A stretch of DNA of 52,098 bases, the filler included, from Stramenopiles sp. TOSAG23-6 (lineage: Eukaryota): assembly GCA_900128565.1 (NCBI GenBank). It is 2 parts of 2 records of this genome, joined end to end, with 100 filler letters (N's around TTAATTAATTAA, not from the genome) between each part and the next. Parts side by side here need not be neighbours in the genome. Positions count along the whole stretch, not along the records: positions 1 to 26,014 come from LT635988.1; positions 26,115 to 52,098 come from LT635989.1. The stretch is one strand, 5' to 3'. A program made the position numbers and the translations under genes. Every line of letters begins with the position of its first letter. The stretch's first letter is position 1. Shown here piece after piece: positions 66-46,247 of this stretch. The notes below the pieces were generated by a model. The model saw nothing but the letters and a program-made list of their open reading frames with translations. It searched no databases and was not told the origin of the DNA.

Positions 66-3000
66 CAATCAAGGGTTGTGTCTCGAAGAGGAAAAAACAA
101 TATGGTAGTCAAGTATGGTTGCCAAACGGCAAAAATGCTAAAAAATATAAGCCTCAGGATTCATCGTTACGAAGAATTTTCAAAAGAATTTCTTCCGCCG
201 TCTAAATCAAGAAAAACTGATATGCTTGAGAAAGCTGAACGGATAATGAAAGATGTTCATTATAGAGTTTTTAAGGATGCTTTTTGGGGAGACAAGGAGA
301 ATGTTTTTAAGGCTGCCCTCAAAGAAGAAAAGTGTTTTGAAAAAAAAATTAAGAAAAATGTTATTTGTAAACATGAAATTACTATTGAATATCAAGACAT
401 AAAAAAAGAAAAACTCTGTATAAAATCTTATAAGCTTCACAGTAAAGGATGTGCAGTACATGTTCCATCTAGAGGATCAAGAAAAGCAGATTTATCAAGT
501 ACTTATAGCGAAGAATTGCGCCTCGAAGCTGTTGCAAATCCAATAAACTCAAAAAAAATTAAAAAAATTAGGAACAAGGAATTGATCAGAAGTGGATATA
601 CACAACAAACCGATCAAGACTACAGGTTCCTCCGTCGACAACAGAAAAAAATTATTGGAACCCCACTGGACCATGTTCAACTGGTAGTGACAAAGCTGTT
701 GAAGCATGTGAAGGGAAAAGATGATGAGACCCAGCTTTTTTTTGAGTTCACGTTATCAGAGGAAAAAGAATTTAGATTACATTTAAAATCAATAGGAATG
801 ATCCCGGGGTCATTTATTCGAATGCTGGAAGTTGAAGTTGACAATGTGCCCATCATAAGGAAGAATCGTTCCGGAGATGCTGCGCATGCAAATTCTCTCT
901 TTTTCGGAATTCTCCTAAATATTCTTGCTAGTGGTCCTGGGAATATGATACTTCTAGCTCTACTTGCATGGTGTTCAAGACATGAAAGTAATTCAACATG
1001 GGGTTTTACAAGTCATATTTATAAAGAGGTCTTAGGTGTAATTTTTGCATTGATGTCTGATGGTCGGAAAGGTTTGGCTGGTGTATTCAAACGTGAAATG
1101 GGAATCAACAGTTTCAAGCTTGCATGTTATATGCACTTAAAAAAAAATCTATTAGATAATGGGATTCCTCAAGACAAGATTGGTTTCTTTACAGCAATGT
1201 TCTATGCTCGTACAAGAGATAATTTTTATATAAATATGAAATACATGCTTGAAGACTTAAGTCAACGTCAAGTACAAACAATTAAAAGAATACTATGTGA
1301 AGAGAATCCTGTTTTCACTTGGTCTGCACCATTTTTCCCTGAAGGTGTAACAAGAGAAGGGATGTTCACCAATCAATTGAACGAATCATATCATGGCGCG
1401 ATGAACAAGCGTGAGACTCGGAAGCTTTTTCCTGGTCAAATGCTACAAGTAGAGCATGATGAACATTTCAAACGATACACACTACAGCTAGAAACTGCAA
1501 AGAAGGAGCTTTTACAAGGTTATATACTCGAGAAGAAATACAGAGATCGCGTTACTGAAGCACTAGAAGTCCTCGATAATTTAGAGGGGACATTCAGTAT
1601 GGTTGTCAATCCAAATGATCACATGAAGGCTGAAATAACTTACATAACTAAATCTGGTCGTCGGGGTGAAACACACATTTGCAGTGCTGTACCACCATAT
1701 GAGTGCAGCTGTAATACTATAAGAGATTGTGAGTATCTTTCATGTGTCAATTCAAACTATTTCCTTCGGAAGAGGAACATTGACCCAAGATATGCGGTTC
1801 ATGTGCGACATCGTATTACATCAAAAATTAAACTCATGGAAGCTGCTCTTAATGTAAAGACAAATAAAGACCTTCTTAATATAAATCTCTCAAAGGTGGA
1901 GCAGATCACGACACCGCTAATAAATGCAAAGAATAAACGACCAGCAGGTAGAATGACTACACAAAAACAGAGAGCTAAATATAGAAAACAAGAAAAGATC
2001 AATAAACGTAGATTTGAAGAAAACCCTAATATTATTTTCAAAGAACTGGAACGAACTGTTCGTTGTGTCCTCTGTGGTGGTCCTCATTTTGCAGATAGAT
2101 GTACAACATGCAGCGACGGCAAAGGTAATTCAATAAATCCTAATAGGATGCAACGGGAAATAGATGCGAAATCAATAATAATAAAAATAAACTCCATTCA
2201 AGATATACTTGACTTAATCCCGAAGGATATCAATGAATGGAATGAATTACTCAAGAAACAAACTCATAATAATAATAATAGCAAGAGTACAGAAACTCCT
2301 GAATATAGACGACTATGTCGGCAATTTGTGATAAACACATTGAAAGATTATGCACAAACATTGCAGCCTGTTCCGATTGCTCATCTATCTCTAACGCAGA
2401 GACAGCTATTGAGAGAAACCTATGTAAATCTTAATGCATCCTATAATCATAATCTGTTAAAACGAAAGTGTTCCAAACCTATTCAAGAAAGAACCAAAAA
2501 ACCTCGTACAAAATTGACTGATAAACATGTTCCGAAATCGACTGATAAACATGTTCCAAAATCGACTGATAAACATGTTCCGAAATCGACTGATAAAGAT
2601 GTTCCGGAATCGACTGATAAACATGTTGCAAAATCGACTGATAAACGTGTTGCTCTAAAAAATAAAAAAAAAATAAGAAAATTGAGTGCTGATGCTGCTG
2701 AAAAAAATCATATGAAATCTCTAGAAATTTTACAAAGAGGTGCAGTTGGACTAGTAAACCTGGGTAACACCTGCTACTTAAATAGTGTGGTACAATGTTT
2801 GTATGTTTTACTTTTTTTTTCAAATTTGAAATTGTTTTTCATAAGAAATTTTGTACCTTATGATATTTTTGAAATATTTTTCCAAAATACATGAGTTCTT
2901 GTGAAAGCCTCACACACTTCTTCCTTGAAAATTATGAAGAAAAAGAAGGAGTTCCGAATTATTATTTTAAATTAGTGAAGGAAATGTGGTCTTTGGAGTG

Positions 3001-4961
3001 TACTAATGTGTCACCAAATGACATAGTAAATCATTACAAAAAAAAACATTCGGTATTTTCATTGAATATACATCATGATGCATCCGAATGGATGGTTGCC
3101 TTACTAAATGACTTAGATGAAAGCTTGGCCGATAAATTTGTTGAGTCTAAACAAAATGACTCATCTATTCTTATTTATAATGAACAAAGTGTGGAATCAA
3201 AGACAAATGATGAAAATGACTTACGTAAAATATATCTCCAACAATATCAAACATCTGTCATAAGTTCGATATTTGGCTTTCTTGTAAAATGTACAATCAC
3301 TTGTCCAAATTGTAGTTTACAATCTTTGAAATTTGCAAGACAAATGAAATTGGATCTACCATTCACACAACCGAAAGGTTCGAATGATTTTGTTGAGTTG
3401 AAAGACTTGATTGATAATTTTTTGATAACTGAAGAACTGGATTCTGAAAATATGTGGAATTGTCTACAATGTAAAAAAAAAGTAAATGGAAAAAAACAAC
3501 TTGCTGTATTCAACAGTCCAACCATTTTGGTTCTCTGTCTCAAGAGGTTTGAATATATACATGAGAAAGGGAGGATCAAAATCAGTACCAAAGTCAAATA
3601 TCCTATAGAATTAAATATGTCAAACTTTATGTTGCCAGGTTCTTCAAATGTTGAACTGTATAATCTGGTAAGTGTTAGTCATCATATGGGTTCTGCTCAA
3701 ACAGGGCATTATGTAGCATATACACGTAATTTTTTAAACAAAAAATGGTACAAATTTGATGATGACTCAGTTGAAGAAATTATATGTACAGAATCAACAA
3801 TTGTCGATAATTCCGCATATATACTTTTCTATGAGAAAAAAAATTCAAAAATTCAAAATTGTAATTTAAAACAACAAACCGAGAAAAGTGAATTTTGTGT
3901 ATGCAAAAAGTTTAAAGATGAACGTATGATTATGTGTGAGGAGAAAAATTGTCCACATGGGAAATGGTTCCATTTAACATGTGTCAATGTACTTGAAAGT
4001 TATGCAAAGAATCCTTCCAATAAATGGTTCTGTAATGAATGTTCTGAAATAGATCTCGTTTCTGATTATGATACTGATGATGAAGAAATCCCCACAATTA
4101 AAAGGAAAAAAAAAAAAAAAACTTTTAAGATGGAATATTCAAAAAGAAAATTTACAGCATCACAGAAACGAAAAATTCATAAGCATCTTGCTTATTCTGA
4201 AGAAGAGTCTTCTGAAGAAGAGGATTCTGAAGGAGAGGAAAGCATGATTGATGTAAATGTATATCCTATTCGGCCAAGTGATTTTCGTCGTCTTCGACCA
4301 AAAACGTGGCTCAATGATGAGATCATAAATTGGTTTCTCTTGGATGTATTCCCAAAAGAATACAACGGACTAAAATTTCATTTTTTCAACACATATTTTT
4401 TTAAAAAGCTCTATTTTGAGGGAGGTTGTTATAATTATGAAAATGTCAAAAGATGGACAAAGAATCTAGAGAAAATGTTAAAAAAAGATGTAGTATTCAT
4501 TCCGATTAACCCACCTCTGCATTGGTCTTGGGTGGCTCTTTTTCCAAAGAAGAAAGAAATTCATTATTATGATTCTTTTCAGAATAAACTAAATGCACAA
4601 AGATATGGTCGTATAATAACCAGATATTTAAAAGATGCAACTTCAGATAAACTAAACATATCATTACCAAAGTGGAAGATAAAACATCCGGTGTCACCTA
4701 TCCAAACAAATCAGTGGGATTGTGGTGTATTTACAATCATCGGAATAATGCATGTTTTATATTTTTTCAATTTTGATTTTTTTTTTAATATGAAATTTTG
4801 TACCTAACAAATATTAATTTTTTTTTTGAAATATTTTTCCAAAATACATGTACACTTTTCTAGGAAAAACTTTTGATTATAAAGAAGAAGACATGCCACG
4901 TTTTAGATTATTATTGGCTTTTACAATATTAAAAAATTCTAAAAAAGAATTCAAAATATGA
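66..4961 (+). CDS. MULE-like DDE transposase fused to SWIM, Zn knuckle, USP (C19) deubiquitinase, PHD finger and Ulp1 (C48) protease; 5'-partial; exons 66-2800, 2893-4749, 4850-4961
   Basis: Transposase motifs GDAAH (~876), MSDGRKGL (~1059), CYMHL and TNQLNESYH (~1383). SWIM-like CSC..C and CVLCGGPHFADRC knuckle. USP Cys box GLVNLGNTCYLNSVVQCL, His box HHMGSAQTGHYVAY and WYKFDD. PHD CVC..C..C..WFHLTC..WFCNEC. Ulp1 WLNDEIIN, HW, YDS, QTNQWDCGVF. Two ORFs and a terminal exon (YTFLGKTFDYKEEDMPRFR) are joined by removing two repeat introns. Confidence 0.85.
2515..2648 (+). repeat. 24-bp coding tandem repeat (STDKHVPK, about 5.5 units)
   Basis: Repeated tcgactgataaacatgttccgaaa units in the transposase-USP linker. 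Confidence 0.9.
2801..2892 (+). other. GT-AT intron (92 nt)
   Basis: Removal gives QCL-SSCESLTHFFL, colinear with [14 protein letters not shown] of the USP at 21289; branch variant CCTTAT. Confidence 0.85.
4750..4849 (+). other. GC-AT intron (100 nt)
   Basis: GCATGTTTT...GTACCTAAC...CCAAAATACAT; removal restores the Ulp1 C-terminus DCGVF-x15-Y-KEEDMPRFR. Confidence 0.85.
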
Positions 4962-4984
4962 AACATTTACAAAATAAAATTTAT

Positions 4985-7900
4985 TTATTTAATAAAATAT
5001 ATATAAAATTTTGGTATATTATTGTTTTTAACAGCAAATTTTTTTTTTATGATTTTTACACAATTTTTCCAATTCAATTGTTGATTTCCTTTGAAATCAA
5101 TCACAGATATTTTATGTTTTTGTTTGAGAAATATTGAAACATTAGCTGTATGCATTACAGCTGTATTCATAACGTTTTTGAATTCTTTTTTTGAAATTAA
5201 CTTAAAATTTTTTTTTTGGTATTTTGTTTGTATGTGTTTTTGGATAAATTCATCCAATTTCTTTTTTTTTTTTTCATTTTGTTTTTTTTCTATTTTTAAA
5301 CGTTTTTTTTTTAAATATAATTTTTTTAAAATATAGGAATTATTCACTTGAATCATTGGTGATTCTACAGTTGTTGACAAAGAGGAAACTGCGATATTCG
5401 ATTGACTTGTATCAAGATTAGGATTACTATTTACTATTATCTTTTTTTTGCTTCTTTTGAATATCTCTGAGGACGGTTTTAATTTTCTTTTTCGAGAAGC
5501 GAACGACGCTTTAGATATGTCTAGCACTACTTGTTGAAGTAACTTTGATTGTCTGTAAGGTTTATTAAAAGAATTGTTGCTGCAAATCTTCACAACATCA
5601 TCGCTTACAACACTGTGCATTGTTCCTCGTACACCTTCTGTTGTGTAAATATTATATGCGCTTTTACGTTTCGTGTCTAGTAAAAGGTTTCCAACAATCT
5701 TCGGATGTGTATCGACAAACATTGGAGAAATGACTGGTCGTAAATAGAATCCACCTGTAGCACATGTCTCTCTGTGAACCCATTCACCAGGAAAGAATGT
5801 TTTTTTGCCTCCAATATTGCAGAGATAAGATCCAGATTTAACGCGTAATGAATGTTTTATAAACTCGTCATTTATTGAACCTACCATTGAACCAACAATA
5901 CTACAGGAACCTAGAGAAACTGCATATCCAGAACATTTTCTTAAACTATCTTCTTTCTTATTATTCATTTTTGCTTTTGCAAAAAGAAAGTCCTTGTGTA
6001 ACCAGGCTATCGCTTCTTCAAGTATTTTACATTGCTTCTCATCAAGAAGGGCATCTTCACGGTTTTTTTTCGATAATGTCACTTTTGCAAGAGTATTCAG
6101 AAGTGGCCCAGATAAGGAAACATTTACAGCAATAGTTGATTGAGCGTACATCGCACAAAATAACTTTTGGAAATTTGACTGTACTCCGAATTTTGTGAGC
6201 TGACCAGCAAGGAACTTTTCACTACCTTTTGAATTGATTTGATCACCATACGAGTGTATTCCGGTTTTGCTATGAAGGCAGAGAATAGGAACTCTGGCAG
6301 CTTTTGGCAGAAGTGGGAAAATTGATCCTTCAATACAGATCTTATCACGAAGAGACCTATCCGATATGTTTTCGTTAAACAGAATTTCGGAGGAACATTT
6401 TTTACGATACCTTACAATACGATTTACTTCCTTTGAAGAGCAATTGGGGGTTGGGAATAAAGTCTCTCTTATTGTATCATAAAGTTTAGCTAAGTCATTC
6501 ACTCCATATCCGATTTTCTCTCGTGACATTTCAACTAATGTCATAAATTTATTTGTTGCTGCTGTTGTTGTTGTAGATGTTGTTGTTGTTGTTGGTGTTG
6601 TTGTAGATGTTGTTGTTGTTGTTGGTGTTGTTGTTGGTGTTGTTGTTGGTGTTGTTGTTGTTGATGTTGTTGTTATTGTTGTTGTTTTTACTGTTGTTGA
6701 TGTTGTTGTTGTTGTTTTAAGATGTCCTTCCGAAATATCCTTTCGAAAGACAATGTTTTTTCGAATTGTATCTATAACTTTTTTACATTTATAACCTCGC
6801 CATAGGGCCTGAAATTGTATTATACCAATCCGCCTCTTCCTAGCTCTGCCCATTTGCTTGTTAAGCCATAATAATGACGAAAAACTCAATTGTCTTTTTG
6901 ACAAGCTCAGGTTATCATCATTTTGGTTACCTTCCTCAGAACTAATTAAAATTTCCCACTTCTCTTTTAATCCTACAATATCTTTTTCTGATGCAAGATC
7001 CCACACTTTTCCATTTGAAGATCTCAAAGCACTTTCAGCAGCTGTTTCCGCGTCATTGCAAGGTTTGATTCCAGCACCAAAAGTTAAATATGCAGCCATT
7101 ACGGCTCTAGCTAAGAACGAGATAGGAATCGACAAATATGAAATTGAAAGTGATTCTGCTCCAGCCCTAGCTGAACCATTGACACCATTTCCGGATCTCG
7201 GTACAGTATAAGTTGTCTGGGCATTCCCTCCACCGGCAGGTAGCAACGCCCCGAAACGATTAAGAAGTATTCCTTTCGATCGATTGATACCCTTATATTC
7301 TGGAACAATACCAGGTACTCGCAAACCACGAAGATCCGCAAGATTCAATAATGTAGGTTCGAGAGAGTCTCCTTCAAAAGGGAGTAATACTTCAATATAT
7401 TTCTTATCTTTGGCGATAATTTTACGCTGTTGACTTTTTTTTCCTTGATCAACAAATTTCTTTGACTTTGATTGTGATGATGACTTCAATCTTTTAGAAG
7501 GATATCTGATTTCCCACATACTTTTCGTAATGTCTTTCGAAATTAACCTAGTGTGCGAAACATCAAACCGTGTACTTATTATGTTGCGTTGTAAAAAATC
7601 CCGGAACGTAGATGCAAATTCAGTATCGATAGGTACAGCACAGTGAGTTGCAACAGAGTTAATACATATTGGTGAATCTATCCATTCCGATAGATAACCA
7701 GAATGGACGTTATCACAACTTGATTTTTTCTGAACGCTCACTGGGCAGCGAGACGACATGTTTATCAAAACACAGTGCTCTTTACCGTAAGGAATTGAGT
7801 GACAGCAATGATTCCTTTTTGACTCATTTATTGCACCAACAATCGGGTTGGTGTATATGTTAAATTCTGTACCGCTCTTTTTAAAAACAGCCTGCAATTC

Positions 7901-9208: not shown

Positions 9209-9745
9209 TGCGGCTTGAGCGCAAAACCTTTCGTGAATTTCTCACGTGGTAGTGTGCTCAGAGGCCGCAAAGAAACTTTATTAAACTTCTCGCTTTTCTC
9301 GCTTTTCAAAAGCGAGAAAGTTTACGAATGACGAATGGTATCGACCGAAGAGAAGTGATCCATCAACATCAAAAAAAATTGGCCAATCAAAAAAAAAAAA
9401 ATCGCGCCCATCAACATCAAAAACAAAATTTATATTTGTTTTTCAAAATAAAATATTCTTCTGTGTATAACTCTTGGATTAATAGAATTATGTAATTGAT
9501 TTAATTAAAGTTTATATATTAATTAAAGTTTATATATTAATCAAGAAAAAATAATTTTTGACTTTGAATTGTGGAATGATTTTTGTTGCGAGATTGGATA
9601 TGCCAAACTATCCATTTTTAATGCTTCAAATAATAAATAAACCAATATCTGCTGAGAATATACATCAAATAATGTCTAAAAGATATAAATACTAGTAGAT
9701 AGTGTCACAATGCGATTAGATAATGTCAAAACGATATTGTGTATA

Positions 9746-13042: not shown

Positions 13043-13313
13043 TCTATACGCGTATGATCAGACCATCTTGAAAGATACTCTTCATTCATAATAATAGCCA
13101 TATTACGGTACCGTATAGGTTGCCACATACCCAACGAACGACGTTACAGTCAAAGAAATCACGAAATATATAGAAAAAGGTCAAAGGAGTCAGTGCAAAA
13201 GTTTGCTATGGGCTGATTGTGTCGAGCCCTTAACCTATTGCATGCGCTTAGTTCATTCTACAAGAAGGAGTAATTTTACACCAGTGTTAAACCTACTCTA
13301 TTTCTTGGTTACA

Positions 13314-19877: not shown

Positions 19878-20993
19878 ATGAATGTGTTTATTAAAGATCT
19901 TGATCCAGGTAAAGCTTCTTCTGAGCCCAACAGTGTGTCATCCAAGTGTGTGGCACTATCTATAGATCTGATGATCACTTTGAATCACCAAATAGAACTT
20001 TTTCGTCAAATAGAGTATAATTCAGGATTCCCTTCCCTCAAGAAGTATAATTCACTACGTTTTTCAAAGCCTCTGTTACCAGAAGATCGCAGGATAAGCT
20101 ATGTTTATGAAAAGTCAAATCCTGTAATTATGGTTGAGTTACTCTCTAAAATACGCAACTTTGGTTGCTTACCAAAACTGGCAACTTCAATGGATGGTAT
20201 ATTCTATGATTTAGGATCTGGTGAAGGTCACGTAGTATTTGCGGTAGCTGCATTGTGCAAAGAATTTAATATACTGAAAGGAATAGAACTGAACTGGGGA
20301 CGATGTAGTTTTTCAAAGGCGTTTTCGCAATGTTGTACTTTTTCAAAATTGAGTTTCAAATTTTTTTTTTCATACTAAATTCCGTACCTAACAAAAAAAA
20401 ATCTAAAATGTTTTTTTCACAATACATGGTTATCCCACTTAGACAATATTATTTCACAAAATAAAAAAAATAAAGACATAGGATATACTCCGAAACATCA
20501 AAAACAGAAACAAGAAATAAAAAAAAATGAAAGGGAAATGACTGAAATTGTCAATATACCAGAAAATATTCATTTTTTACAGGAAGATTTTATTGACGGT
20601 AGAATTGACTGGAGCGACGCTTCTTGTGTTTGGGTTTCATCTACTTGTTATGATGATGTGACAATGTCACATATTTGGAACCTTGCGAAACAGCTTTGTC
20701 ACAATTCAGTGGTTGTAACTTATGTACGTTTTCAAAATTAAATTTCGAATTTTTTTTTGTACCAAATTTTGTACCTAACAAATTTTTACTAAAAATAATA
20801 TTTTTCCAAAATATATGATAAACCACTACGACCCATAAAACTCCGACTTGATAATTCTGAAACAACTTTACGAAAAAACCCTAACTTTTGTACATTTTTT
20901 TCAGTTGAAGACATAGGTATTTTTTCTCTTAGTCCTACATGGAGGCCTCGAGTATTCGTAAATGTGCGTAATGAAATTCCTTGGCACCTTTAA
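19878..20993 (+). CDS. DOT1-like class I SAM-dependent methyltransferase; exons 19878-20334, 20428-20723, 20817-20993
   Basis: FYDLGSGEG, GIEL, EDF..DWSDASCVWVSSTCYDD; three open segments separated by two repeat introns. Confidence 0.75.
20335..20427 (+). other. GT-AT intron (93 nt; alternative in-frame donor at 20332)
   Basis: GTACTTTT...CCGTACCTAAC...TTCACAATACAT; contains an in-frame stop. Confidence 0.75.
20724..20816 (+). other. GT-AT intron (93 nt)
   Basis: GTACGTTTT...GTACCTAAC...CCAAAATATAT; removal gives VVVTY-DKPL. Confidence 0.8.
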
Positions 20994-21288: not shown

Positions 21289-23543
21289 ATGTCAACTGGT
21301 GGTAGAAAGGGACGCTTCAACAGCTACAATAATCGTAGTGGTAACTATTTATCTTCAACTCAGTACACGCACCAGAAAAATCATTGTAGAAATGATACAA
21401 GTGGTGGGACTGATAGCTACAGGACAATTAAAAGCAGTACCAATAGAATGAATAGAACTAATATTCAAAAAAATGATCGTAGACTGGTGGACTCAAACTA
21501 CCGTCAAACTTCAAATCTAGACAACTTGAGAAAATTTGACTCGTCTTATTCGAGTACTTCCTCATTGATGCATTCTTCCCACGACCAGAGACATTCTAAT
21601 AGCATGAAAAGATCATATAAACGCCAAGGTTCGTATCTGCTCGGAGGTTCGCCATCTTTGCATAGCCAAAATAGATCCTATTCAGGCAGCAGTTTCAGTA
21701 ATTTAACTATGGAACAGCAACTTCCTGACAAAGAAAGCACTGAAAAAAATAATTATAACTGTAAAACACAGTCAAAACAACAACTATTGAGCCAAACGAC
21801 AAACAAACGACTTGAAAGAGCAATGAAGCATTTAGATTTGTCAAGTAATTTTACATTAAACCGATCCACAACACCAATTTTAAATTCAAACAAATTCGCT
21901 TCAAAGGATACGTCTCACATGCTTTCATATAATAGTTATGAAGATTCAAACAAATTCTCTTCAAAAGATACGTCTCGCATGCTTTCATATAATAGTTATA
22001 AAGACCCGAGTAGTGTCCCCAGTACGATGAATTACTCAACTTCGGCATTACCAATACATTCAAAGAAAGTGGAAAATTGCACTAACCCATTAGTTATTTC
22101 AAACACATCAAGAATTTCCAAACAAAATGATTTATGCCATCCTCTACATAGATACAGTAGATGTAACGGGAGAAATCGACGAATCTCCGACACACATGTT
22201 TATGATAATAGCTTTCGGAATAGCCCCATTAGTAAGACTGGTAATAAAGTTATTGGCATCAAAAGTCAAAATGAATTTTCTCAACAAAAGAGTGACTGCA
22301 CGAAGAATGAATTATATGCAGTGTTTTCTAATCCTTCAACACCTCGTTGGCCACTACCACCGTCGACACCACTAAGAGAATCTCCTGCAGGTAAAAAGGC
22401 TGGCTATTGTGGTTTACGCAATTTAGGTAATACTTGTTTTATGAATTCTGCATTACAATGTTTGAGTAACACTCCTACTTTAACTGATTATTTTCTTAGG
22501 GGAAGACATCAACGGCAAATCAATAGGACAAATCCATTGGGAATGCGTGGTGAGTTGGCTACTGCATATGCTGACTTGATATCATCAATGTGGAATGAAA
22601 CAAAACAATCAATTTCACCATCTAAATTCAAAGCAGTTATAAGTAAATTTGCACCTCAATTTAGTGGTTATCGGCAGCACGACAGTCACGAATTATTAGC
22701 ATTCCTTCTAGATGGTATTCATGAAGATTTAAACCAAGTTAAAAACAAGCCATATAGAGAAATGCCAGATGATTCATCAATGCAAGACATCGAATTAGCG
22801 AATTTATTTTGGCAGCATCATACAGCTCGAAATCAATCAATTATTGTAAATCTTTTTCATGGACAATTTAAATCACGAGTACAGTGTCCTGAGAAGTCAT
22901 GTACGTTTTATTTTTTTTTCAAGTTCGAATTTATTTTTCGTACGAAATTTTGTACCTAACAAATTTTTGAATTTTTTTTGAAATATTTTTCCAAAATACA
23001 TGTAAACATACTTCACTCACATTTGATGCGAGCATGTATCTATCAGTTCCGGTTGTAAAAAAAAGTAGAGGAAGAAGTAGTAGTACTCATTTAAGAGACT
23101 GTCTAGCAAAGTTTTCGACACAGGAACAATTAGGTAAGAATGATCAATGGTATTGCTCAAAGTGTAAAAAATTTAAACAAGCGTATAAACAGCTTACGAT
23201 TTGGAAATTACCTCGTATACTTGTATTGCATCTCAAACGTTTTCAACATGGAAAATACCGACGGAGTAAACTTGAGACTTTGGTTGAATTTCCAATTTCT
23301 GGATTAGATATGTCTTCATACTTGGTGCCTGGATCTCCTGATTCAAAAATGTCTAATTTATATGACTTAATTGCGGTATCTAACCACTCTGGAAATATGA
23401 GAGGAGGGCATTATACCGCATGTGGATTAAATCAGGTGACTGGCCAATGGCTATGTTTTAATGACGCAATGGTAAGTTCAGTGAGTGAATCTTCACTTGT
23501 ATCTAAATCAGCATATATATTATTTTATAAAAGAAGACAATAA
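21289..23543 (+). CDS. Ubiquitin-specific protease (C19, USP4/11/15- or USP8-like); exons 21289-22900, 23002-23543
   Basis: [53 protein letters not shown]. Confidence 0.93.
22901..23001 (+). other. GT-AT intron (101 nt)
   Basis: Removal corrects the frame and restores [24 protein letters not shown]. Confidence 0.88.
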
Positions 23544-26114: not shown

Positions 26115-26169
26115 CAAAATTTCGTACGAAAAAAAATAAATTCGAAATTGAAAAAAAAATAAAACATAC
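26115..26169 (-). other. Repeat-family intron, 3'-truncated by the gap
   Basis: GTATGTTTTA...CGTACGAAATTTTG directly follows the codons for DHIGH. Confidence 0.85.
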
Positions 26170-27642: not shown

Positions 27643-27928
27643 AATAGAATTTTTTTTATATAAAGCATACATAATATTTAGATGCTGTTTTTATAATTGT
27701 ATGTAAGGTAGTGTATAGTACTTTATACTTATAATTTATTTTATTTGAGTAACAATAACCACAAAAATGTACGAACTTTCGTCATTCCAAAATTGAATTT
27801 TTTACCTACATATTTTTTCGTAGAAAATTTCGTACGTAACGATTTTGTTTTACTAAAAAAATTGGTATTAAACTTTCCAATCAACTTCTGTCAACACAAC
27901 AAAATGTAGATGTGATGACAAGTAAACC

Positions 27929-28696
27929 TTAAAATTGGAGATAAAAATGGAATGCATGAATATAAGCAAAACCACCAGGTTGTTTGGTGCATTTTTTGTG
28001 TGTGTAAGGCGTGGGCAATTGGAATATAGACATTGATGGTTGACTTAATTTGACATTGGTAAACTGATACGTCATGTATTTTGGAAAAATATTTCAAAAG
28101 AAAAATCGTTAGGTACAAAATTTCGTACGAAAAAAAAAATCGAATTTGAAAAAAAATAAAACATACATTAAAGGTTCAGAAATTCCCTGTCCATCTTCAC
28201 CTACAGCTAACCACTCTTCTGTCAACATAACAGGATAACCAGTATCGGCATTCTGCCAGATATGGATGTATGAATCTAAAGTTTTGACGATAAATCGTTC
28301 GCAGTTTGTGCAAATGCCAGAGAGCGACTCATTTCCTTTATAGGTTGCTGTAGAAGGAAACTTTGGTTCTGGCATATTCTCACCCAAGTAGAACCTATTA
28401 CACTCAGCATATTCGCCACTTTCAATCATATACTCTTGTTTTGAGTCATAGCGTCGGATGTAACTTCTTCCTGCTTCATAGCCGACGCTGATGTCAGCCC
28501 GAGCACGGCGATTTGTATAGTCATAATAGACTTTTAGTTTTCGCTCCCGATGAGGATATTCTGTGCCCTCCGGTATCTGATGTGCTGTAATTACTAAATC
28601 GGCAGAAAATTGTAGTGGAAAACGAAGTACGGGTGTTAAAGAGTAACCAAAGTGAACAAGTATGAAGCAGAAGAGTAAAACTGACTGTAGCATCAT
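27929..28696 (-). CDS. Secreted protein, possibly ependymin-related (LolA-like fold); exons 28696-28167, 28073-27929
   Basis: Signal peptide, PLQFSA, YYDYTNRRAR; the spliced tail is TYQFTNVKLSQPSMSIFQLP..C. Confidence 0.65.
28074..28166 (-). other. GT-AT intron (93 nt)
   Basis: Near-consensus copy; the next AG is 10 nt downstream and out of frame. Confidence 0.85.
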
Positions 28697-36807: not shown

Positions 36808-37087
36808 TTTACTTATGATTATTAAGTTAACACAAAGCCAATCGATCCAATGTCATATCGGTTGGCCGAATTCTGTCACATCAGGATGTGCGGTCAGAAA
36901 AAAAAAATTAAAACCTCCGTCGATTGCTGTCCGGTAATTCCGGTCGAAATTCAACGTATCATCAGTTACAAAGTTCTTGTCCCCTAATATGATACTCCAA
37001 CACAAAGGATATATCATTGACATAATTATTCACTTTCATCCAACCGAACTTCAGACACGTACAATAGCAAAATCCAAATAGAAGAAG

Positions 37088-38776: not shown

Positions 38777-38872
38777 TGAGGTATTTATGATAATGAAAAG
38801 TAATTAATAAAAATAAAACAACAATGTATTTGGTTACAGTTTACAGAAAATTTATAATATATTTAAATATCA

Positions 38873-40517
38873 TTAGATATCTACAATTTTACACAAATCA
38901 TCAATATTATAACGAGGCATAGTTTTACTATCTTTCTTTTGATGAATATTCCAAATACATTGAGTGATTAATTTTGTCATTGCCATGTCTACAGAGTCAT
39001 ACATTTTTTTACATTTACTATAATCTATGTTTATACTTTCTTCTTTGTCAAACTCTGTGAGTTTATTGTTTTCAACAGTATCATTAAACTGTTTTATCGC
39101 GGTATAAAAATCTTTTTTAGATCCAAAATGGCCGAAACCAAAACCATAACGATTTATTCCAACCATTCTTAGTGTTTGTTTCAACGAATTTTTATCATTA
39201 TTTCGTTGATTCTTCTGAGCTTTACATGAATGTCTCATGAAAATCCGACCCCATTTACATGTGCTAGGTGGAATATCTACTATACTTTCCTTACATTTTT
39301 GGAATGATTTTTTATCATGTTTCAGAGTGAAATTGCCTGCATTTTTGTCATTGTACAAAATCGAGGACTTTCTTGTAGTTGACATATTTGTATTGATCAT
39401 AGTTTTTATATTTGAAGTTTTCGTTTGATTACATACAAATGCATCTATAGAATTCAAAGTTTTCTTTTCTTTTACTCTACATATTTTGTGAAAAAATATT
39501 TTTTTTTATACAATTTGTTAGGTACGAAATTTCGTACGAAAAAATAATTGAAAAAAAAAATCTATCTGTAAAGTACTAACAAATTCAGAGGAGAGACAAG
39601 TTGTCCCTTTGAGCTTTTGAACTGTTGTCCTAAACCAATGAATAATACTGTATATATGTATTGTGAAAACAAATTTCAAAAAAAAATGTTTTTTTGTTAG
39701 GTACAAAATTTGGTACAAAAAAAATAAAATAGAAATTTGTAAAATGTACAATAAAAATCGATAAAAAGAAGTTCCCTACAGTTGTATGACGTAGCCAATG
39801 TCTTGTTTCAAGTATGCTCCATGATGTATTATTATGCAAATTGTTACTCCTAGATACATCTTGGTTAACAACGAAATCTCCAACAATTATGCCGTGGTTA
39901 CAGCCTACTTGAAACTCTACACCTTCTACTGGCTGTATATGGCTACATATGACTCTATCAGAGTGAGTTGAAGCAATATTATCTCTAATTTTTAACCGAT
40001 ACCAAGTATTTGGTTTGAGGGTTATAGTATTCAAGTTACTTAACTTTGTCAAATCAAAGAGTATACTTTGGGGATTTACATGATCATCATTAGAGATAGT
40101 AGTACTATCTACACCATTTTTACACACATTCTTTGGAAAAGTATTCTTTAAAGGGAAACTTGATAAAGACGATAAAGACGGACTAGTCGTACAACTATTA
40201 ATTTGATAGTAACTATATAAGTTAGGTATGACATGAATATTTTCAAGAATGAGACCACAAGAAACAACCTGATCATCTAATAGTCCACTGATTCTAAATA
40301 AAGATGTTGTTCTTCGAGGAAATGGTTCACCATATTTACACGAAGTCATAATATCTACAAAGTAATAATAAGAAGACAGTTTTGTTGTTGGACTTTTTTT
40401 TGTGCTAGCATTACAATTACAAAGCTTATTTTTGTTATCGGGATGACAGGTTGTATTTTTCAAATTAATGGGAAGACGATCTTCATCATCCAGCGACTCG
40501 GAAAGTTGCAAAGACAT
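38873..40517 (-). CDS. Hypothetical single-pass membrane protein; exons 40517-39750, 39655-39577, 39480-38873
   Basis: Three ORF fragments join in frame after removing two repeat introns; the first junction completes the hydrophobic segment FFLSIFI-IYSIIHWF. Confidence 0.7.
39481..39576 (-). other. GT-AT intron (96 nt)
   Basis: GTACTTT...GTACGAAATTTCGTACCTAAC...TTCACAAAATAT. Confidence 0.75.
39656..39749 (-). other. GT-AT intron (94 nt)
   Basis: GTACATTTT...GTACCTAAC...TTCACAATACAT; removal corrects the frame. Confidence 0.8.
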
Positions 40518-40839
40518 CGGAAAATGATAATATCGAACTTTGTTTTACCATCTCATGATGATGCAACACACGAGAGAAAGAATCTCTGTGTATGACAGTC
40601 CGGTTTTTTGATTGATGAAAAATAATATCCGAACTTCAAGTTCGGACAGGTTTGTCAGAATTCGATTTTTCAATTATTATGTATGCGCATTTTCCCCCAT
40701 GCTTTTGATTTCATCTGATGAAATCAAACTCAAAATCTGAATATCAAAGAAAAGTATATCATCATGAGAGTTAGAGTTTTTTTATTATCAACAGTAATTA
40801 ATAATGAATTACTTGAATAAGTCAACTGCTTAAATTCTC

Positions 40840-42969
40840 TTATTCATTTGAACAAACATTTTTCATAATCCATTCACCTTCCTCTAGTGCACATGTAGCA
40901 TGCGTTGGATGCGTAGGTAATGCAATCCATGTATCTTTCTCTAGTGCTGCTGTCGCAGTAAGACTTTTATAAACAGTTTCATTTAATTTCAAAGTGTTTT
41001 TAATATCAACACCAAGTAATACTGATATTGTCTTTATCGACTCCTTCTTTCTTCGACCCTTGACTATATACCAATATATTGCATCTCCCCATTTCATAAT
41101 ATTAGCACTATCCTTTAAACTGCTTGTATTACTCATTGTTTTAGACTTACTATATGTTGAACGTTTGGCTTTTGAGCAAGGAACTTTTGTAGTTTCATGT
41201 TTGCTATGTAAACAATGACACGAAATCTCTCGAAATGATTTGTCAGAAGAATTACATTTCAATCTATCACACGAATAAATAGTCTCATATGCCCCCGAAT
41301 TTTTATACCTTACTTCAATGCCGTTTTTATTTTCAAAACACTCGCGAAATGAAGCTCTATACCATGCATTGTGAAAAATACCAAAAATCAATTCGTTAGG
41401 TACAAAATTTTATACAATTTTTTTTTGAAATTCATGATAAGAAAACATACACGTACCTTTATATTCTACCATAAGGCCCGCATCATTCAAATGTAATGCA
41501 TTAGCCCATGCAGACATACAAGAAGGAAGATTTGAGTGAGAAATACTGCTGGAAGTGGAAGAAGCACTTTCTTGTTGTGATAAGAGATTTTGTTCTTGAT
41601 ATTTACATTTGTATGACTTATTACTAAGCATATCCTCAGTTGAACTCTTCCTTTTCTTTCTGTATGACTTATTACTAAACATATCCTCAGTTGAACTCTT
41701 CCTTTTCTTTCCAGAACTTTTCTTACGTGTTTTAGAAGTTTTGCTTGAAGTGGCAGAAGAAGGTGCAGATATTGAAGATAAGTATTGATTACGAAAAGAT
41801 AAGTATTGATTACGAAGTGATTGTAATGAAACTCCAGCCTGTTTCACACTTAACCAACCATTATCAGTTTTTTTCGATGGTACAATCCTGCGCTTCGTAC
41901 ATGTATTTTGGAAAAATATTTCAAAACAAAATTGTTCGTTAGGTACAAAATTTCGTACGAAAAAAAATTCGAAATTAAAAAAAATAAAATATACATATAG
42001 CCCAGCCAGAAGGTGCGTTAAACATAGCTCTAGTAGTTTCATCAACAATTATACCTTCTTTGGTCAATGCGGCATTGAAGACAACACCTTTGAAAGTTAT
42101 TGTCAGTGCTTTTGGACCTGATAATAAAATCCCGGATTTGACAAGATCTAGAAGACTACATGTATTTTGGAAAAATATTTCAAAAAAAAATTGTTAGGTA
42201 CAATTTCGTATGAAAAAAAATTGGAATTCGAAAAAAAATAAAACATACATGACTTTGAGGAGTTTTCATCTTCAATATCAGATGAATCAATAGCCGAATC
42301 AGTCGCCGAATTAGATGCTGAATCAAATAAAGATTCATCGGAATTATGATTTCGTTTGTTAAACTCTTCTTCTTCACTTCCAGAAGAAGTATTTGAAAAA
42401 TCATGTTTTTGGTATTTATTGTAGTAGATTTGGCGAGAGTTACGTATTTTCTGAACATTTTTCGCTGAAGGAACATTTACTTGACCTCGATGCCTCAATA
42501 GAATTCGAGGAAATATCTGAACATTACCATTTGGAAACTCCAACCAATCGGCAGTGTTGTTATCATAATCGATCAGAAATATCAATACGTGTTGATTTTT
42601 TTTATGTTGCTGATTGTTTGTTAGGTATGGATTTTTTTCAGCAAATGGAGATAAATTAGGTAAATCCTCTTGTAATAAAACCAAAGTTTTTCCCACATCA
42701 GATTTCTTTATATTGTAATACAACTTGATGTACCCCAAAATAAGTTGGTTGTGATATCTGACTTGTACTCTCCTTCCAATAAGGTTAGGAAAATTATTCA
42801 TAATAATCTGAGATTGATGAGGGTGAGCATAAGAATGAACTTGTCGAGAGTTATTCTTTATATGTCTAACTCTTTCCGTCTGACCATCTCTTTGAGTATT
42901 GTTACTGATAAGTTGGCCAGGTTTATCGGAATTTACGCCAATTGCATCAGGAAGAGAAAATGCTCTCAT
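40840..42969 (-). CDS. Putative chromatin protein: Tudor-like, RAMA, Tudor-like and LysM-like domains; exons 42969-42249, 42159-41995, 41900-41451, 41363-40840
   Basis: Spliced product reads LLDLVKSGILLSG..LTITFKG..FNAALTKEGII..FNAPSGWAICTKRRIVPSKKTDNGWLSVK (MPND-type RAMA), then VEYKGTWYRA and SIKTISVLLGV....LKLN...L.....L......LP. Confidence 0.72.
41364..41450 (-). other. GT-AT intron (87 nt; alternative in-frame donor at 41456)
   Basis: GTATGTTTT...GTACCTAAC...TTCACAATGCAT; removal gives KGT-WYRA. Confidence 0.78.
41901..41994 (-). other. GT-AT intron (94 nt)
   Basis: Removal corrects the frame inside the RAMA domain. Confidence 0.85.
42160..42248 (-). other. GT-AT intron (89 nt)
   Basis: Removal corrects the frame before the RAMA domain. 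Confidence 0.85.
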
Positions 42970-43357
42970 CTCAAGTGACAATAGTGTTTTTTTCGAAAGT
43001 GGTGAAAGAAGAATCCATCAACAACAACGAAAAAAAATCCGCTGTTATTTTTTTCAAAAACACGAAAAATTCAGATTTTTTTTTCATGTTTTCCAAGGTT
43101 GAACATTTGAAATGATAAATATTTTTAAAAACATCATATTTTCATTAATTCTATTCCGATGGCAAAATTTTTCTGAAGCAAACGCTGATGATGATGAAAC
43201 TGTAGTTCATTTAGATATTCTATGTTTTGAAACTTAAAGTAGTGAATTAACAATGAGTCACTTGAATGAGTCCTCTTATTAAATTTCTACAAATTCAATT
43301 CAATTTTGAAAATAAACAAGGAATATCTATTTATTATGTACGATGAATCAATTTCAT

Positions 43358-46247
43358 TCAATTTTGGCTACTACTACTACTACTTCCCATTCTGAACATT
43401 GATGCAAAATTAGCTGCTGTTGCTGCCGCAGTATTCGTATTAAATCGTTGTGAGAGTTCTGCGGCAGCATCGGACACAGTTCCTGTAAGACTTGTCGGTT
43501 TATACTCGAGACCCATCTTTTCAATAACTTCCTGTTGATCACTTTTCTTCTCACCTTTTAGGGTCATAACACGTTGTAAATCTGCAGCGGTGCCACCAAC
43601 CCATAAAATTTTAAAACTTTGAGGTAAACGTTCCAAAGGAGTCCCGATTAGTTTCAGCAGCATGACGGCTTTATTCGCTTCTTTATTTGCATATTTACTG
43701 AATGTGGAGAGAGATCGAATCATCGTAGCTTTTTCATCAGATTCTAAGTCTGAAGTCGGAACAGAAAGAAATGATGTTTTAACAGCATGTGTATCGAGTA
43801 ATAGTTGTTGTGCAGCCATTTCACTGATGCGTTTACATTTGAAGATATTTTGTGTAAATCGCGGTAAAAATAAAGCTGCGAAACGATCACAGAAATTATT
43901 AAAGTAAATCGGTCCAGATAGCGCAGAACGAATGGGTATCACTTGTTCCCGAAGTATTTTTGATATTTCAACCACATAAGGAGACTGGTCGCCAACATCA
44001 ACACATGTATTTTGGAAAAATATTTCAAAAAAATCGTTAGGTACAAAATTTACTATAAAAAAAAATTCCGAAATTGAAAACAAATAAAACGTACATGTAC
44101 CCCACGGCATTCGATGCATTGCAATGAGAGAGGGTTCTAATTTAACGACACAACCAGATATTTATTGTGAAAAAATATTTTTAAAATTTGAAATTCATTA
44201 GGTACGGAATAATTTAACAAAAAAAACAAATAAATAAAAATATGAAATTCATAAATGTAAAACGTACACTAGACACTTAATCGCTGCTCCAATGACATCA
44301 TAAAATGCATCGGGAGAAATATCAATATGTATTTTGGAAAAATATTTCACAAAAAAAAAATTGATTTTTGTTAGGTACAAAATTTCGTATGAAAAATAAA
44401 TTAGAAATTGAAAAAAAAATAAAACATACATGTTCCTCAAATACTTCGTCGATTTCATCTTGTAGCAACTCTTCTAATTGGGGCGAAGTCTCCGCACAAT
44501 AGGCAGCTGTGTTTACAATAAAACAAATCCAGTCACGAGTTTTATCATCTTTAATAACAAAATGATCTCCTAAAGAAGAATTAAATTGAGACTTTGGAAG
44601 TTTTTCACTTAATCTTTCAGAATATGTTGCTAAAACAGATTTAATTTCCTTTTGAAGTAAAAATAAAGTTTGACCATTAGAAAAATGAACACAACGTTCG
44701 ATTGCTTTTTTGATATATCGAAACAAAACTGCCGCAGATTGTAAAACTCCAATGTTACCTGATGTCATGTTTTCTTCTTCTTCTGACATAGCCTGTTCCA
44801 TAATAGTAATCATATTAGCCTTTTCAGCTTCTACATATTTTGACAAATATGGTTGAAATGCTGCGCTAATTATGCCTTTAAACTTTTTCAATTGTATTTC
44901 ATTATTTATATTATCTCCATTTTTTCCATTGAGTGACGTAGCACTCCCAAGTGGTGCATTAGAGGTGTCATCAAGACCATCATTAAAACGATTTGTCTCT
45001 CTTTTCTCTTTTTCTTTCTTTTCACGTTCGATTCGTTTGGCTTCAGTCCTCTGTTTTTCATATTTTCTACGAATGCCTTCTGCACTATTTGGATCAATTA
45101 ATTGACCATCATCATCAAATTCTGGACCACCTCCACCACTACGATTTGTTGAATCATCAGAATCTTCAATTTCTTTAAAACGATCACATAACATACGTTC
45201 AAATGATTTGGTTACACGAAGATGATGCATTAATAATTTCACATGCAAATCTTCGTTCAATAAAGAATTCAATTGAAGCCGCGTCGCTTCACAAAATTGA
45301 ATACAAATGCGCCGACACATTTGCCAATTTTGGGGGAAAACGTCAGCTAAATGTTTATCAAAGATCTTGAGAAGTCGTTTAAACCATTTAAAACGTCGAT
45401 CAACTGCAGCTTCTTCAGTTAAAATATAACCTTCGCCACCTCTCCCAAATAATCGATTATATGGACGAAGTTGATCTTCATAAAATAAGCGGATAAGTCT
45501 CTTTTGATGTGTACCACCGATTGATTCAACTACGAGGCAAGCATCACGTAGAGCTTCAGGGTCTATACCAGCTAACTGAGGATTATCTATAATTGCTCCA
45601 ACTTCTCGAAATTGATCAAATATTTTCTCCTTTAAATCTTTTTGAAGCTCTTTGACGACACCACATAACTCAGCCACCTTTGGTACATCCGTGTATGCTT
45701 CAAAATATGATGCTAATGATGTTACAGCACTCACCAGGTACGCTGCACGGTTATATTCTCCAGTCTTTGACATCTTTTGGAGTTGGTCAATGGCAGTCAC
45801 CCACATTTGGAGCTTCTTCAGGGATGCAATTGTCGTAGTCAAGTGATGCTTTGCGGAATCTAATTGTTTAATATCGCGGCATATTTCTTCTACCATTACT
45901 TCAGACTGCTCTGCTTTTGACTTGATATCTTTTATTTTGTGCGAAAGCTGCAGGATAGACTGCTTCGCATCATCTACATCACGTGAAGTCTGCTTTGAAG
46001 CAACAGCCTGTTCTCTAATTGCTTCAAATATTTCCTCATCTAAATTTTGTATTCGATCATTTAAATCTACAGAAAATTGATCAATGCGTGAAAGGGATAC
46101 TTCATCTGGAAATTGTGTGTTCAAATACGCAATAGGATCAAAGTCAGCACAATCTAGAGGGTCGTCCGAAGGAAGCACGTCTGCGATAGCTCGTTCTACA
46201 GCATCACTGAAACGGTCACGATCAACTGGACTCTGAGATGCTGGCAT
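43358..46247 (-). CDS. VPS53: Vacuolar protein sorting 53 (GARP/EARP subunit); exons 46247-44430, 44326-44268, 44159-44095, 44004-43358
   Basis: DPLD..DFDPIAYLN..FP, IKSKAEQSEVMVEEICRDIKQLDSAK.HLT, NTAAYC.ET, VGDQSPYV, AQQLLLD. Confidence 0.95.
44005..44094 (-). other. GT-AT intron (90 nt, in frame and stop-free)
   Basis: Removal restores W-x5-VGDQSPYV. Confidence 0.85.
44160..44267 (-). other. GT-AT intron (108 nt, diverged copy)
   Basis: GTACGTTTT...CCGTACCTAAT...TTCACAATAAAT; removal gives CLV-SGCVVKLEPSLIAM. Confidence 0.82.
44327..44429 (-). other. GT-AT intron (103 nt)
   Basis: Removal corrects the frame (EEH-IDISPDAFYDVI); no AG occurs within 35 nt downstream. Confidence 0.88.

Follow-up and report, generated by a model that had tools for sequence, protein, structure and literature searches.

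A repeat family with GT...AT termini interrupts genes of a marine stramenopile and resembles introner-type introns

The window analysed here is a 52,098-nt stretch of the genome of Stramenopiles sp. TOSAG23-6 (assembly GCA_900128565.1), composed of parts of two records joined end to end (LT635988.1, positions 1 to 26,014, and LT635989.1, positions 26,115 to 52,098). It is gene-dense, holding about 20 long open reading frames (ORFs), among them two USP genes (USP-A and USP-B), two tandem ABC transporters, VPS53, an ankyrin-UvrD gene, a Sel1-MYND gene, mitochondrial L28 and Rpc31. At least seven of the genes are interrupted by a short repeated element that begins with GT or GC and ends with AT, present as 14 complete and four partial copies (Table 1). 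Analysis of these copies, of the proteins they interrupt and of related environmental sequences supported the view that the copies behave as introns with a transposon-like origin, and raised the possibility, which we consider probable, that they are spliced literally from GT to AT.

An earlier reading of the window, referred to here as the original prediction, had listed 14 complete interruptions of 87-108 nt, 13 starting with GT and one with GC, all ending in AT and all sense to their host gene, along with three partial copies. Re-reading every interval with its flanks on the host strand bore out the positions, lengths and termini of all 14 (GT start in 13/14, GC start in 4750-4849, AT end in 14/14). 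Orientation was likewise as described: 14/14 complete copies are sense to the interrupted ORF (p = 6e-5), and three cut copies are oriented as the adjacent gene. An nhmmer profile built from the 14 intervals recovered all of them as a single repeat family (E 2e-18 to 6e-8). Partial copies do exist, but they number four rather than three, since the profile added four cut or decayed pieces (1-65, 26115-26169, ~27788-27874 and 52049-52098); genic copies in the window come to 17. Next to the piece at 26115 lie two runs of N, 26015-26058 and 26071-26114, 44 bases each around 11 real bases, which interrupt both an element copy and a phosphodiesterase-like gene.

Pairwise identity among the copies averages 0.76 (range 0.60-0.94). 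The family consensus reads, in order, GTAYGTTTTA, a T-run, CAAATTCGAAT, another T-run, CGTACGAAATTTTGTACCTAAC, a variable stretch and TGAAATATTTTTCCAAAATACAT. The 9-mer GTACCTAAY was found 15 times in the window against 0.46 expected, a count reached in 0/100 shuffles; 14 of the matches lie in copies, and the remaining one (48417) is a chance match in coding sequence. At the donor, G1 and A3 are invariant, +2 is T in 13/14 copies (C at 4750) and +5 is G in 11/14, with GCATG counted. A branch-like motif, in which the branch nucleotide is assigned by motif only, reads CCTAAC in 12/14 copies, CCTAAT in one and CCTTAT in one, and stands 32-44 nt before the 3' end; the branch block has a conservation score of 0.98, compared to 0.80 in the other columns. 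The final two nucleotides are invariant (1.00), and position -3 is variable (C in 11 copies, T in 2, A in 1). The decayed copy at ~27788-27874, the sole copy outside a coding frame, has kept a GTACGA start, has a branch motif degraded to CGTAAC and has lost the ACAT end, a single case that fits selection, rather than youth, as what keeps these blocks in the genic copies. Rfam gave no match in the window, small nuclear RNAs included.

In-silico deletion of the 14 intervals yielded seven continuous ORFs of 234-1588 aa, from each of which one to three copies had been removed. If the copies are retained, 13/14 truncate the protein, ten through an internal stop and three through a frameshift with a stop 3-24 nt on; the length of 7/14 is not divisible by 3. 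In USP-A, Pfam UCH matched at positions 1-22 before copy 2801-2892 and at 17-254 after it, and the joined product NLGNTCYLNSVVQC/L/SS rebuilds the Cys box; in USP-B, UCH matched at 1-136 before copy 22901-23001 and at 130-254 after it. An attempt to fix the spacing at junction 2801 with solved USP structures failed because the alignments begin 20-24 residues past the junction, in a variable stretch. The 635-aa gene also carries, between two of its element copies, a 51-nt tandem duplication (41610-41711, minus strand; 2 copies, 98% matches).

After deletion the other genes of the window are already single ORFs, so that no further intron is needed in it. A regular-expression search for hidden GT-AG introns in the window returned dozens of chance-level candidates, none of which breaks an ORF, although in-frame introns or those in untranslated regions (UTRs) would escape it. 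The predicted absence of GT-AG introns held with this same qualification, and the predicted return of frame and motif spacing in VPS53 and the USP genes was seen in the restored ORFs, the UCH Cys box and the VPS53 alignment described below. Frame and conserved motifs return only on removal of the segments, which supports the view that they behave as introns. The strand specificity of the copies suggests removal from RNA by strand-specific signals, and argues against DNA excision or neutral decay.

VPS53 offered the closest test of the junctions. Removal of its three copies leaves two micro-exons, of 59 and 65 nt, and the resulting 862-aa product was aligned with 22 homologues, the longer of 41 non-self matches (the other 19 were left out unexamined). 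The alignment contains no gap at any of the three junctions, EEH/IDIS, CLV/SG and WGT/CVDVGDQ, and conserved residues start immediately past them. The codon formed at the 44160 junction specifies V, which is shared by 19/22 homologues and by the metagenome contig L029 (3916 nt, 42% GC). The VPS53 encoded by this contig has 36-50% identity and is a nearer relative than the matches from oomycetes and brown algae (38-39%); the coding sequence of the contig is uninterrupted at all three copy positions (AEHIDMT...ILVSS...WDSVDKVGD). The three sites are empty in L029 DNA, pointing to lineage-specific insertion, though the two genes are only 36-50% identical. L029 has introns of its own at 1185-1252 (68 nt), 1986-2048 (63 nt) and 2796-2864 (69 nt), all with a GTACGT donor and an AG end, at positions where the VPS53 of the window is uninterrupted. 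After the first of them the next exon also starts with GTACGT, forming a 6-nt direct repeat. The likeness of these three introns to the element is not significant (z -2.4, 1.3 and 1.2; 300, 33 and 39 of 300 shuffles as good).

Only one near-identical VPS53 protein is present in the database, P0001, a 723-aa gene model identical to the window translation in the aligned blocks; the next-best matches are oomycetes and brown algae. In the model a 373-nt GTTTTA...TTATAG 'intron' begins at base 5 of the first copy and closes at an AG within the third. Both conserved micro-exons are lost in this way, the final 15 codons of the third copy are read as protein, and six conserved stretches of the uninterrupted exon 1 are missing. 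Judged against the alignment, the predicted 373-nt GT-AG intron is false.

Short direct repeats at the junctions cause several registers to yield identical mRNA, and where registers differ they alter the junction codon only; neighbouring registers yield distinct mRNAs at 39481, 39656, 44160 and 44327. The original prediction had proposed GY...AT as the sole register shared by all copies, and this proved correct: register 0 fits 14/14 copies, compared to 13/14 for register -1 (mostly TG..CA), 11/14 for register +1 (mostly TA..TG) and 7/14 for register -2 (AT..AC). Register -2 creates a stop codon at 20335, and at 44160 it gives I where 19/22 homologues and L029 have V; variation at position -3 is also not expected were AC the true end. 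With the cut placed before the G of GTAYG, the frame sets the 3' cut after the T of AT, +/-3 nt, and the gap-free VPS53 alignment excludes the 3-nt alternatives there.

Canonical spliceosomes strongly prefer AG acceptors, and GTATGT together with (C)TAAC or TACTAAC is the classic major-type consensus. The copies carry the 5' GT or GC with an extended donor and a CTAAC-type branch motif at a workable distance, as U2-type introns do, and lack the 3' YAG (AG in 0/14, AT in 14/14). In all 14 the stretch from branch motif to 3' end is free of AG. Past the 3' end, the nearest AG stands out of frame at 4750, 28074, 39656, 41901 and 42160, and for the three VPS53 copies it lies 20-40 nt within conserved coding sequence; the offsets reported earlier, +14 after 4849, +10 after the 28074 element and +40 after the 44327 element, were all confirmed. 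In-frame downstream AGs occur at 2801 (+3), 39481 (+6), 41364 (+9), 42160 (+12) and 20335 (+15). An exonic AG lies no more than 10 nt downstream in 7/14 copies, compared to 6.1 expected, and thus there is no avoidance of AG. With no AG from CCTAAC to the 3' end, and with conserved residues directly past the junctions, the putative introns of VPS53, at least, cannot use an AG acceptor.

Several features of the junctions suggested how the copies arrived. Direct repeats across both junctions, scored as the identity of the upstream-exon end with the copy end plus that of the copy start with the downstream-exon start, average 3.5 nt, compared to 0.70 +/- 0.27 at random insertion sites (0/20000 trials as high). 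Their length varies between copies from 1 to 7 nt, the most consensus-like copies having repeats of 5-7 nt (e.g. CATGTA at 22901 and 42160). The flanks read (C)AT / copy / GT(A), with T at -1 in 13/14, A at -2 in 8, G at +1 in 11 and T at +2 in 9. Target-site duplication models of AT, TG, ATG, YATG and CATGTA fit 8, 10, 7, 4 and 2 of the 14 copies, and none is compelling; neither an empty site in a close relative nor an autonomous partner of the element was found. The termini ATGTAT and ATACAT are complementary over about 6 nt and are paired in 4/6 minimum-energy folds; older copies have lost this complementarity and kept G1, A3 and the final AT. Judged from these patterns, the junction repeats resemble a target-site duplication from which part of each splice site would come. 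Many alike copies lie in unrelated genes, all in sense orientation, and their removal restores the frame; we therefore regard the feature, with high confidence, as real and introner-like. Since this is one mobile family with direct repeats at both junctions, the terminal AT would be inherited from the element or from the target-site duplication, and the copies are not 14 independent samples.

Table 1. Element copies and the genes that carry them (positions along the window; phase and product as read after removal of the copies).
Feature	Position	Strand	Details
Partial copy, 3' part, cut by window start	1..65	+	nhmmer E 3.5e-12, model 32-94; GTACCTAAC at 23-31; oriented as following USP gene
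Copy, 92 nt, GT..AT, phase 2, in Cys box of USP-A	2801..2892	+	CCTTAT replaces CCTAAC
Copy, 100 nt, GC..AT, phase 2, near 3' end of USP-A	4750..4849	+	First downstream AG +14, out of frame
Copy, 93 nt, GT..AT, phase 1, DOT1-like gene	20335..20427	+	Register -2 (AT..AC-type) makes stop codon
Copy, 93 nt, GT..AT, phase 0, DOT1-like gene	20724..20816	+	3' end ATATAT; 4-nt TATG repeat at both junctions
Copy, 101 nt, GT..AT, phase 1, within UCH domain of USP-B	22901..23001	+	Top nhmmer match, E 2e-18; 6-nt CATGTA repeat at both junctions
5' half of copy, cut by N run, phosphodiesterase-like gene	26115..26169	-	nhmmer E 0.0017, model 1-52; Ns 26071-26114
Decayed copy between convergent L28 and 234-aa genes	27788..27874 (27769-27875 as read)	+	nhmmer E 1.8e-5, model 28-71
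Copy, 93 nt, GT..AT, phase 2, unnamed 234-aa gene	28074..28166	-	First downstream AG +10, out of frame
Copy, 96 nt, GT..AT, phase 1, unnamed 493-aa gene	39481..39576	-	Sole copy where register -1 alters mRNA; downstream AGs +4, +6
Copy, 94 nt, GT..AT, phase 0, 493-aa gene	39656..39749	-	nhmmer, ORF restoration
Copy, 87 nt, GT..AT, phase 1, unnamed 635-aa gene	41364..41450	-	3' end ATGCAT
Copy, 94 nt, GT..AT, phase 1, 635-aa gene	41901..41994	-	nhmmer, ORF restoration
Copy, 89 nt, GT..AT, phase 1, 635-aa gene	42160..42248	-	6-nt CATGTA repeat at both junctions
Copy, 90 nt, GT..AT, phase 1, VPS53	44005..44094	-	Only copy staying open in frame if retained; junction PWGT/CVDVGDQ
Copy, 108 nt, GT..AT, phase 2, VPS53	44160..44267	-	Junction codon GT/A = V; AT..AC impossible there
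Copy, 103 nt, GT..AT, phase 0, VPS53	44327..44429	-	Junction EEH/IDIS; first downstream AG +40
Partial copy, 3' part, cut by window end	52049..52098	-	Weak nhmmer match, E 0.38, model 53-95; oriented as the 1543-aa ORF
USP-A (UCH + PHD)	3-4958	+	1588-aa open frame, 2 copies removed
DOT1-like gene	19869-20990	+	312 aa, 2 copies removed
USP-B	21262-23540	+	726-aa open frame, 1 copy removed
Unnamed gene	27932-28726	-	234 aa, 1 copy removed
Unnamed gene	38876-40544	-	493 aa, 2 copies removed
Unnamed gene	40843-43017	-	635 aa, 3 copies removed
VPS53	43361-46286	-	875-aa ORF, 3 copies removed; Pfam Vps53_N 2.4e-93 + VPS53_C
VPS53 exons after removal of three copies	46247-44430, 44326-44268, 44159-44095, 44004-43361	-	4 exons, 862-aa product

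Taken as a whole, the features of the family are probably, though far from securely, those of transposon-made introns that a U2-like spliceosome splices literally from GT to AT. We propose that a non-autonomous, introner-type mobile element of about 90-105 nt spread through the genes of a marine stramenopile (MAST) of MAST-3-like kind, and that it survives in sense orientation only because it carries its own splicing signals. These would comprise a GUAYG donor at the first base, an UACCUAAC branch motif placed 32-44 nt before the end, U-rich sequence and a conserved 3' terminus, ...UUUUUCMAAAUACAU. To encode the protein, the transcript would have to lose exactly the element plus a short target-site repeat. 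A U2-type spliceosome would carry out the first step conventionally, with the donor and branch motif, and in the second it would join the exons after the invariant terminal AU (CAU/G), not after AG, this AU being supplied by the element end or by the target-site duplication. Presumably the copies are removed from the RNA, and the major spliceosome makes its cuts precisely at G1 and U-1. A U2-type first step is favoured because the donor and branch look major-type and because the ordinary introns of L029 share the GTACGT donor; the U2-like donor and branch (GTAY and CCTAAC) had been recognised in the original prediction, as had the missing U12 donor (CC at +5/+6 in 0/14), and both points held on re-examination. 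Since nearby AGs are not avoided, accurate splicing would need a positive determinant for ...ACAU/G, which may be the conserved 3' block, recognised by a changed 3'-site factor, or complementarity of the termini that aids docking.

Environmental libraries bear on both the reality of the copies and their removal. Two metatranscriptome runs of one sample (X6 and X7, shares 0.10 and 0.09) and two seawater DNA runs of 2024 (X3 and X4), apparently separate from the source assembly, were compared with positions 37000-52098 at 90% likeness. Depth at copy positions reached 7,000-39,000 in X3/X4, compared to about 9 and 4.5 for unique sequence, summed contig depth not being equal to copy number, and contig record 2 of X3 passes from unique exon into copy 44005-44094, of which it covers 24 nt. 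From this depth and this exon-copy contig, the copies are genuine, and the environment holds very many of them. Loose ends at 52048, beside the partial copy at 52049-52098, are also seen in contigs of both DNA runs. Elsewhere, an element 16-mer gave 28 single matches in viral contigs, none a genuine copy by nhmmer, and a two-block element pattern gave 0 matches in metagenome contigs.

Several observations weigh against literal GT-AT splicing. Of 488 joints, the 15 listed connect different copies of the repeat and include no exon-exon joint across a copy; the 16 RNA contig pieces listed all lie within exons and span no copy, and stretches without cover count neither way. Copy sequence was as over-represented in the RNA-library contigs of X6/X7 (bins 866-1742, compared to 0-3.8 for exons) as in DNA, an excess compatible with DNA carry-over, unspliced RNA (poor removal) or excised introns, among which contig depth is not usable for choice. 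Protein searches for transcript-derived fragments across junction 44430, one comparing a peptide of the element plus 6 codons with longer proteins (1 candidate) and one comparing the final 100 residues encoded by VPS53 exon 1 with shorter proteins (13 candidates), gave no match. RNAalifold found 0 conserved pairs among the copies, and minimum-energy folds were no better than those of shuffles (z -0.8 to -1.2, one +0.6). Because most junctions yield one and the same mRNA in registers -1 and +1 as in register 0, it is the donor consensus that sets the literal cut sites. AGs stand near the 3' end in 7/14 copies, where an ordinary second step should mis-splice. Lastly, the 14 copies share descent, and their uniform termini weigh less than would those of 14 independent introns. 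A family that ends in AT may point to a GT-AT splicing system; the further suggestion of the original prediction, that the spliceosome of this organism may routinely use AU acceptors, held only in part, for the family does end in AT, but its copies are not independent samples of routine use, and the L029 introns are GT-AG.

These observations invite other explanations, two of which retain excision from RNA. The same elements might be removed by a minor (U12-type) or U12-derived spliceosome with rigid motifs that accepts non-AG ends, GT-AT among them: GT-AT is a recognised functional pair of U12-type introns, Physarum shows a transposon-like expansion of such introns, and the element motifs are unusually rigid (0.98 in the branch block). 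Moreover, GTATGTTTT agrees with GTATCCTTT at 7/9 positions, and ACCTAAC is one deletion from the core CCTTAAC. We consider this route unlikely, however, as the U12 donor RTATCCTT is not found (CC at +5/+6 in 0/14) and disallows the T/C variation at +4 (C in 7 copies). In U12 introns the branch site is placed some 10-20 nt before the 3' end, and the nearest match here to TTCCTTRAC, ACCTAAC, is one T short and stands too far away, at 32-44 nt; the GTACGT donor goes with AG ends in L029, and GTATGT with (C)TAAC is of the major type. Alternatively, excision from RNA may occur at sites set by terminal direct or inverted repeats rather than literally at G1 and U-1, with ends that are TG..CA, TA..TG or varying, and possibly without normal splice-site chemistry. 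Direct repeats of 2-7 nt that straddle both junctions, as in the introner elements of Amoebophrya, would accommodate this mode, as would the identity of the mRNA from register -1 in 13/14 copies and from register +1 in 11/14, and a terminal helix AUGUAU/AUACAU forms in 4/6 minimum-energy folds. That helix is only about 6 bp, however, the folding results above show no structure beyond that of shuffles, older copies without complementarity retain G1, A3 and the final AT, and the strict sense orientation with a yeast-like donor and branch motif points to strand-specific spliceosomal recognition, so that we find guidance by repeats improbable.

Far less weight attaches to accounts that dispense with an unusual acceptor or with RNA removal altogether. 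If ordinary AG acceptors downstream (or upstream donors) were used, the real proteins would differ from those reconstructed here, or splicing might be leaky with partial retention; the five in-frame AGs at +3 to +15 (2801, 39481, 41364, 42160 and 20335), the GT..AG pair of the VPS53 gene model and the abundance of copies in RNA-library contigs all lean that way. We think this very improbable, given that the first AG is out of frame for 4750, 28074, 39656, 41901 and 42160, that none occurs within 15 nt for the three VPS53 copies, 22901 and 20724, the first AG being within conserved sequence, and that the GT..AG model of VPS53 loses two conserved micro-exons and reads half a copy as protein. Still less credible is the absence of any RNA removal, whether the copies are insertions in dying genes, segments eliminated from DNA in the manner of ciliate internal eliminated sequences (IESs), or an amplification or assembly artefact. 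The source resembles a low-input assembly (two runs of 16-18 million letters contain 0.89-0.96 of its words), and RNA contigs and protein searches gave no spliced transcript, which would suit this account; set against it are seven host genes with long intact frames on either side of every copy, the 14/14 sense orientation, which neither DNA excision nor random decay gives, and the exon-copy junctions and thousands-fold depth in seawater DNA of 2024. The elements further depart from ciliate IESs in being sense-only, in boundaries of T/G and T/G rather than TA, in their presence in environmental DNA and in carrying donor and branch motifs.

The preferred reading, literal GT-AT splicing by a U2-like spliceosome, extends to a broader proposal that we hold tentatively, at slightly short of an even chance: that most or all introns of this lineage have been replaced by thousands of copies of one transposon, forming a natural genome-wide GU-AU class in which ...ACAU/G would be preferred over AGs 3-10 nt downstream in the company of U2-like signals. 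Such a class would imply a changed reader of the 3' splice site (at the level of U2AF, Slu7/Prp18 or Prp8) or guidance by the element termini. Should the family be as common as the depth implies, gene counts, completeness scores and pseudogene calls of the lineage may need a gene finder aware of GT-AT. Few signals in eukaryotic gene expression are as constant as the terminal AG of introns, and wholesale departures from it (in Fritillaria, Amoebophrya and euglenids) are messy at both intron ends. Were the proposal true, a textbook intron with only its last base changed would amount to a clean natural experiment on how the second step finds its site, sharpened by AGs a few bases downstream in half of the copies, and a transposon could build introns that take their acceptor from a target-site repeat without AG, widening the range of introners.

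The rest of the window contains further features. The two tandem paralogous half-size ABC transporters (13119-16076 and 16644-19454, plus strand; ABC_membrane and ABC_tran) are both free of element copies. A 2040-aa ORF at 29055-35174 (plus strand) joins many ankyrin repeats (99-nt DNA period, 67-70% matches) to a C-terminal UvrD/REP-type helicase, an unusual fusion, and a Sel1-repeat protein with a C-terminal MYND zinc finger is encoded at 35459-36670 (minus strand) by a 108-nt tandem array of about 8 copies that are 84% alike in DNA. Between VPS53 and a large unnamed gene lies a gene with two stretches of DUF1330 (46541-47197, plus strand), a domain that is mostly bacterial. Pfam at E <= 0.001 returned no match for the ORFs at 4988-9241 (minus strand, 1418 aa) and 37082-38773 (plus strand, 564 aa), nor for that at 47451-52079 (minus strand, 1543 aa; threshold 0.01). 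Single Ns occur at 13935, 24848, 24866 and 27169.

Among known systems, introners are the nearest in kind. Introners of Micromonas and Aureococcus are said to co-opt a target-site duplication for a splice site, and a 2022 preprint reportedly holds another survey of introners; the non-canonical introns of Fritillaria borealis were reportedly the subject of an earlier study, in 2019. Like introners of Micromonas, Aureococcus, dinoflagellates and many aquatic eukaryotes, the element is short, non-autonomous, lineage-specific and multi-copy with alike copies, lies in sense orientation and carries splice signals and repeats of target-site type (PMC12130899). Introners described so far end as GT/GC-AG or AT-AC, whereas the element here ends in AT in 14/14 copies. 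In the 2025 survey AG and AC counted as acceptable 3' ends, families with unfamiliar sites were dropped where transcripts did not support them, and the main text does not mention MAST (PMC12130899). Introner surveys begin from annotated introns, and a family missed by canonical-only annotation would therefore escape them. Our literature search found no paper that combines 'introners' with 'GT-AT', and 'introner' is absent from the papers listed for MAST-3, MAST-4 or Incisomonas. By word search, MAST and Incisomonas genome papers held no discussion of splice sites ('intron' twice and 'splic' 0 times in PMC5778133; 'intron' 0 times in PMC8163842), and an Incisomonas preprint contained neither 'intron' nor 'splic'.

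In Amoebophrya, too, the genes of a marine protist are invaded by repeated non-GT-AG intronic elements with short direct repeats over both boundaries (PMC7789003). Those introner elements have direct repeats of 3-5 nt over boundaries that 'remain unknown', inverted repeats of 8-20 nt that form a hairpin, and a nature discussed as like that of miniature inverted-repeat transposable elements (PMC7789003). The direct repeats are found here as well, and in place of the 8-20-nt hairpin repeats there is complementarity of only about 6 nt. Amoebophrya moreover has many families with no preferred terminal dinucleotides and no clear donor or branch consensus, whereas the window holds one family with uniform GY..AT ends, a yeast-like donor and a branch motif (PMC7789003). 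Mass gain, rigid motifs, a proposed DNA-transposon origin with inverted repeats and a short target-site duplication, and tolerance of GT-AT link the element to the U12-type introns of Physarum polycephalum; those introns, however, have an RTATCYTT donor, a branch 9-12 nt from the 3' end and mostly AG or AC ends, and the element matches neither the donor nor the branch distance (10.1101/2020.10.12.336362).

The closest precedents for the acceptor come from animals. In the tunicate Fritillaria borealis, a U2-type spliceosome handles AU 3' sites, with adaptation in the readers of the 3' site through U2AF paralogues (PMC13326754). Fewer than 10% of its introns are GT/AG, with diversity at both ends and no strong donor, whereas here donor and branch are textbook and only the last base is deviant (PMC13326754). 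Isolated GT-AT introns known from animals, mammals among them, comprise one conserved U2-type case (DGCR2) and seven U12-type cases, which share the terminal pair of the element and indicate that both spliceosomes can splice G at +1 with U at -1 (PMC1557818). Such introns are single cases among hundreds of thousands, whereas the GT-AT segments here would make up all detectable introns of a 52-kb window and belong to one repeat family (PMC1557818). Introners, AU acceptors and non-canonical introners are thus all known already, and what would be new here is an introner family that combines textbook 5' and branch signals with a uniform non-AG (AU) acceptor.

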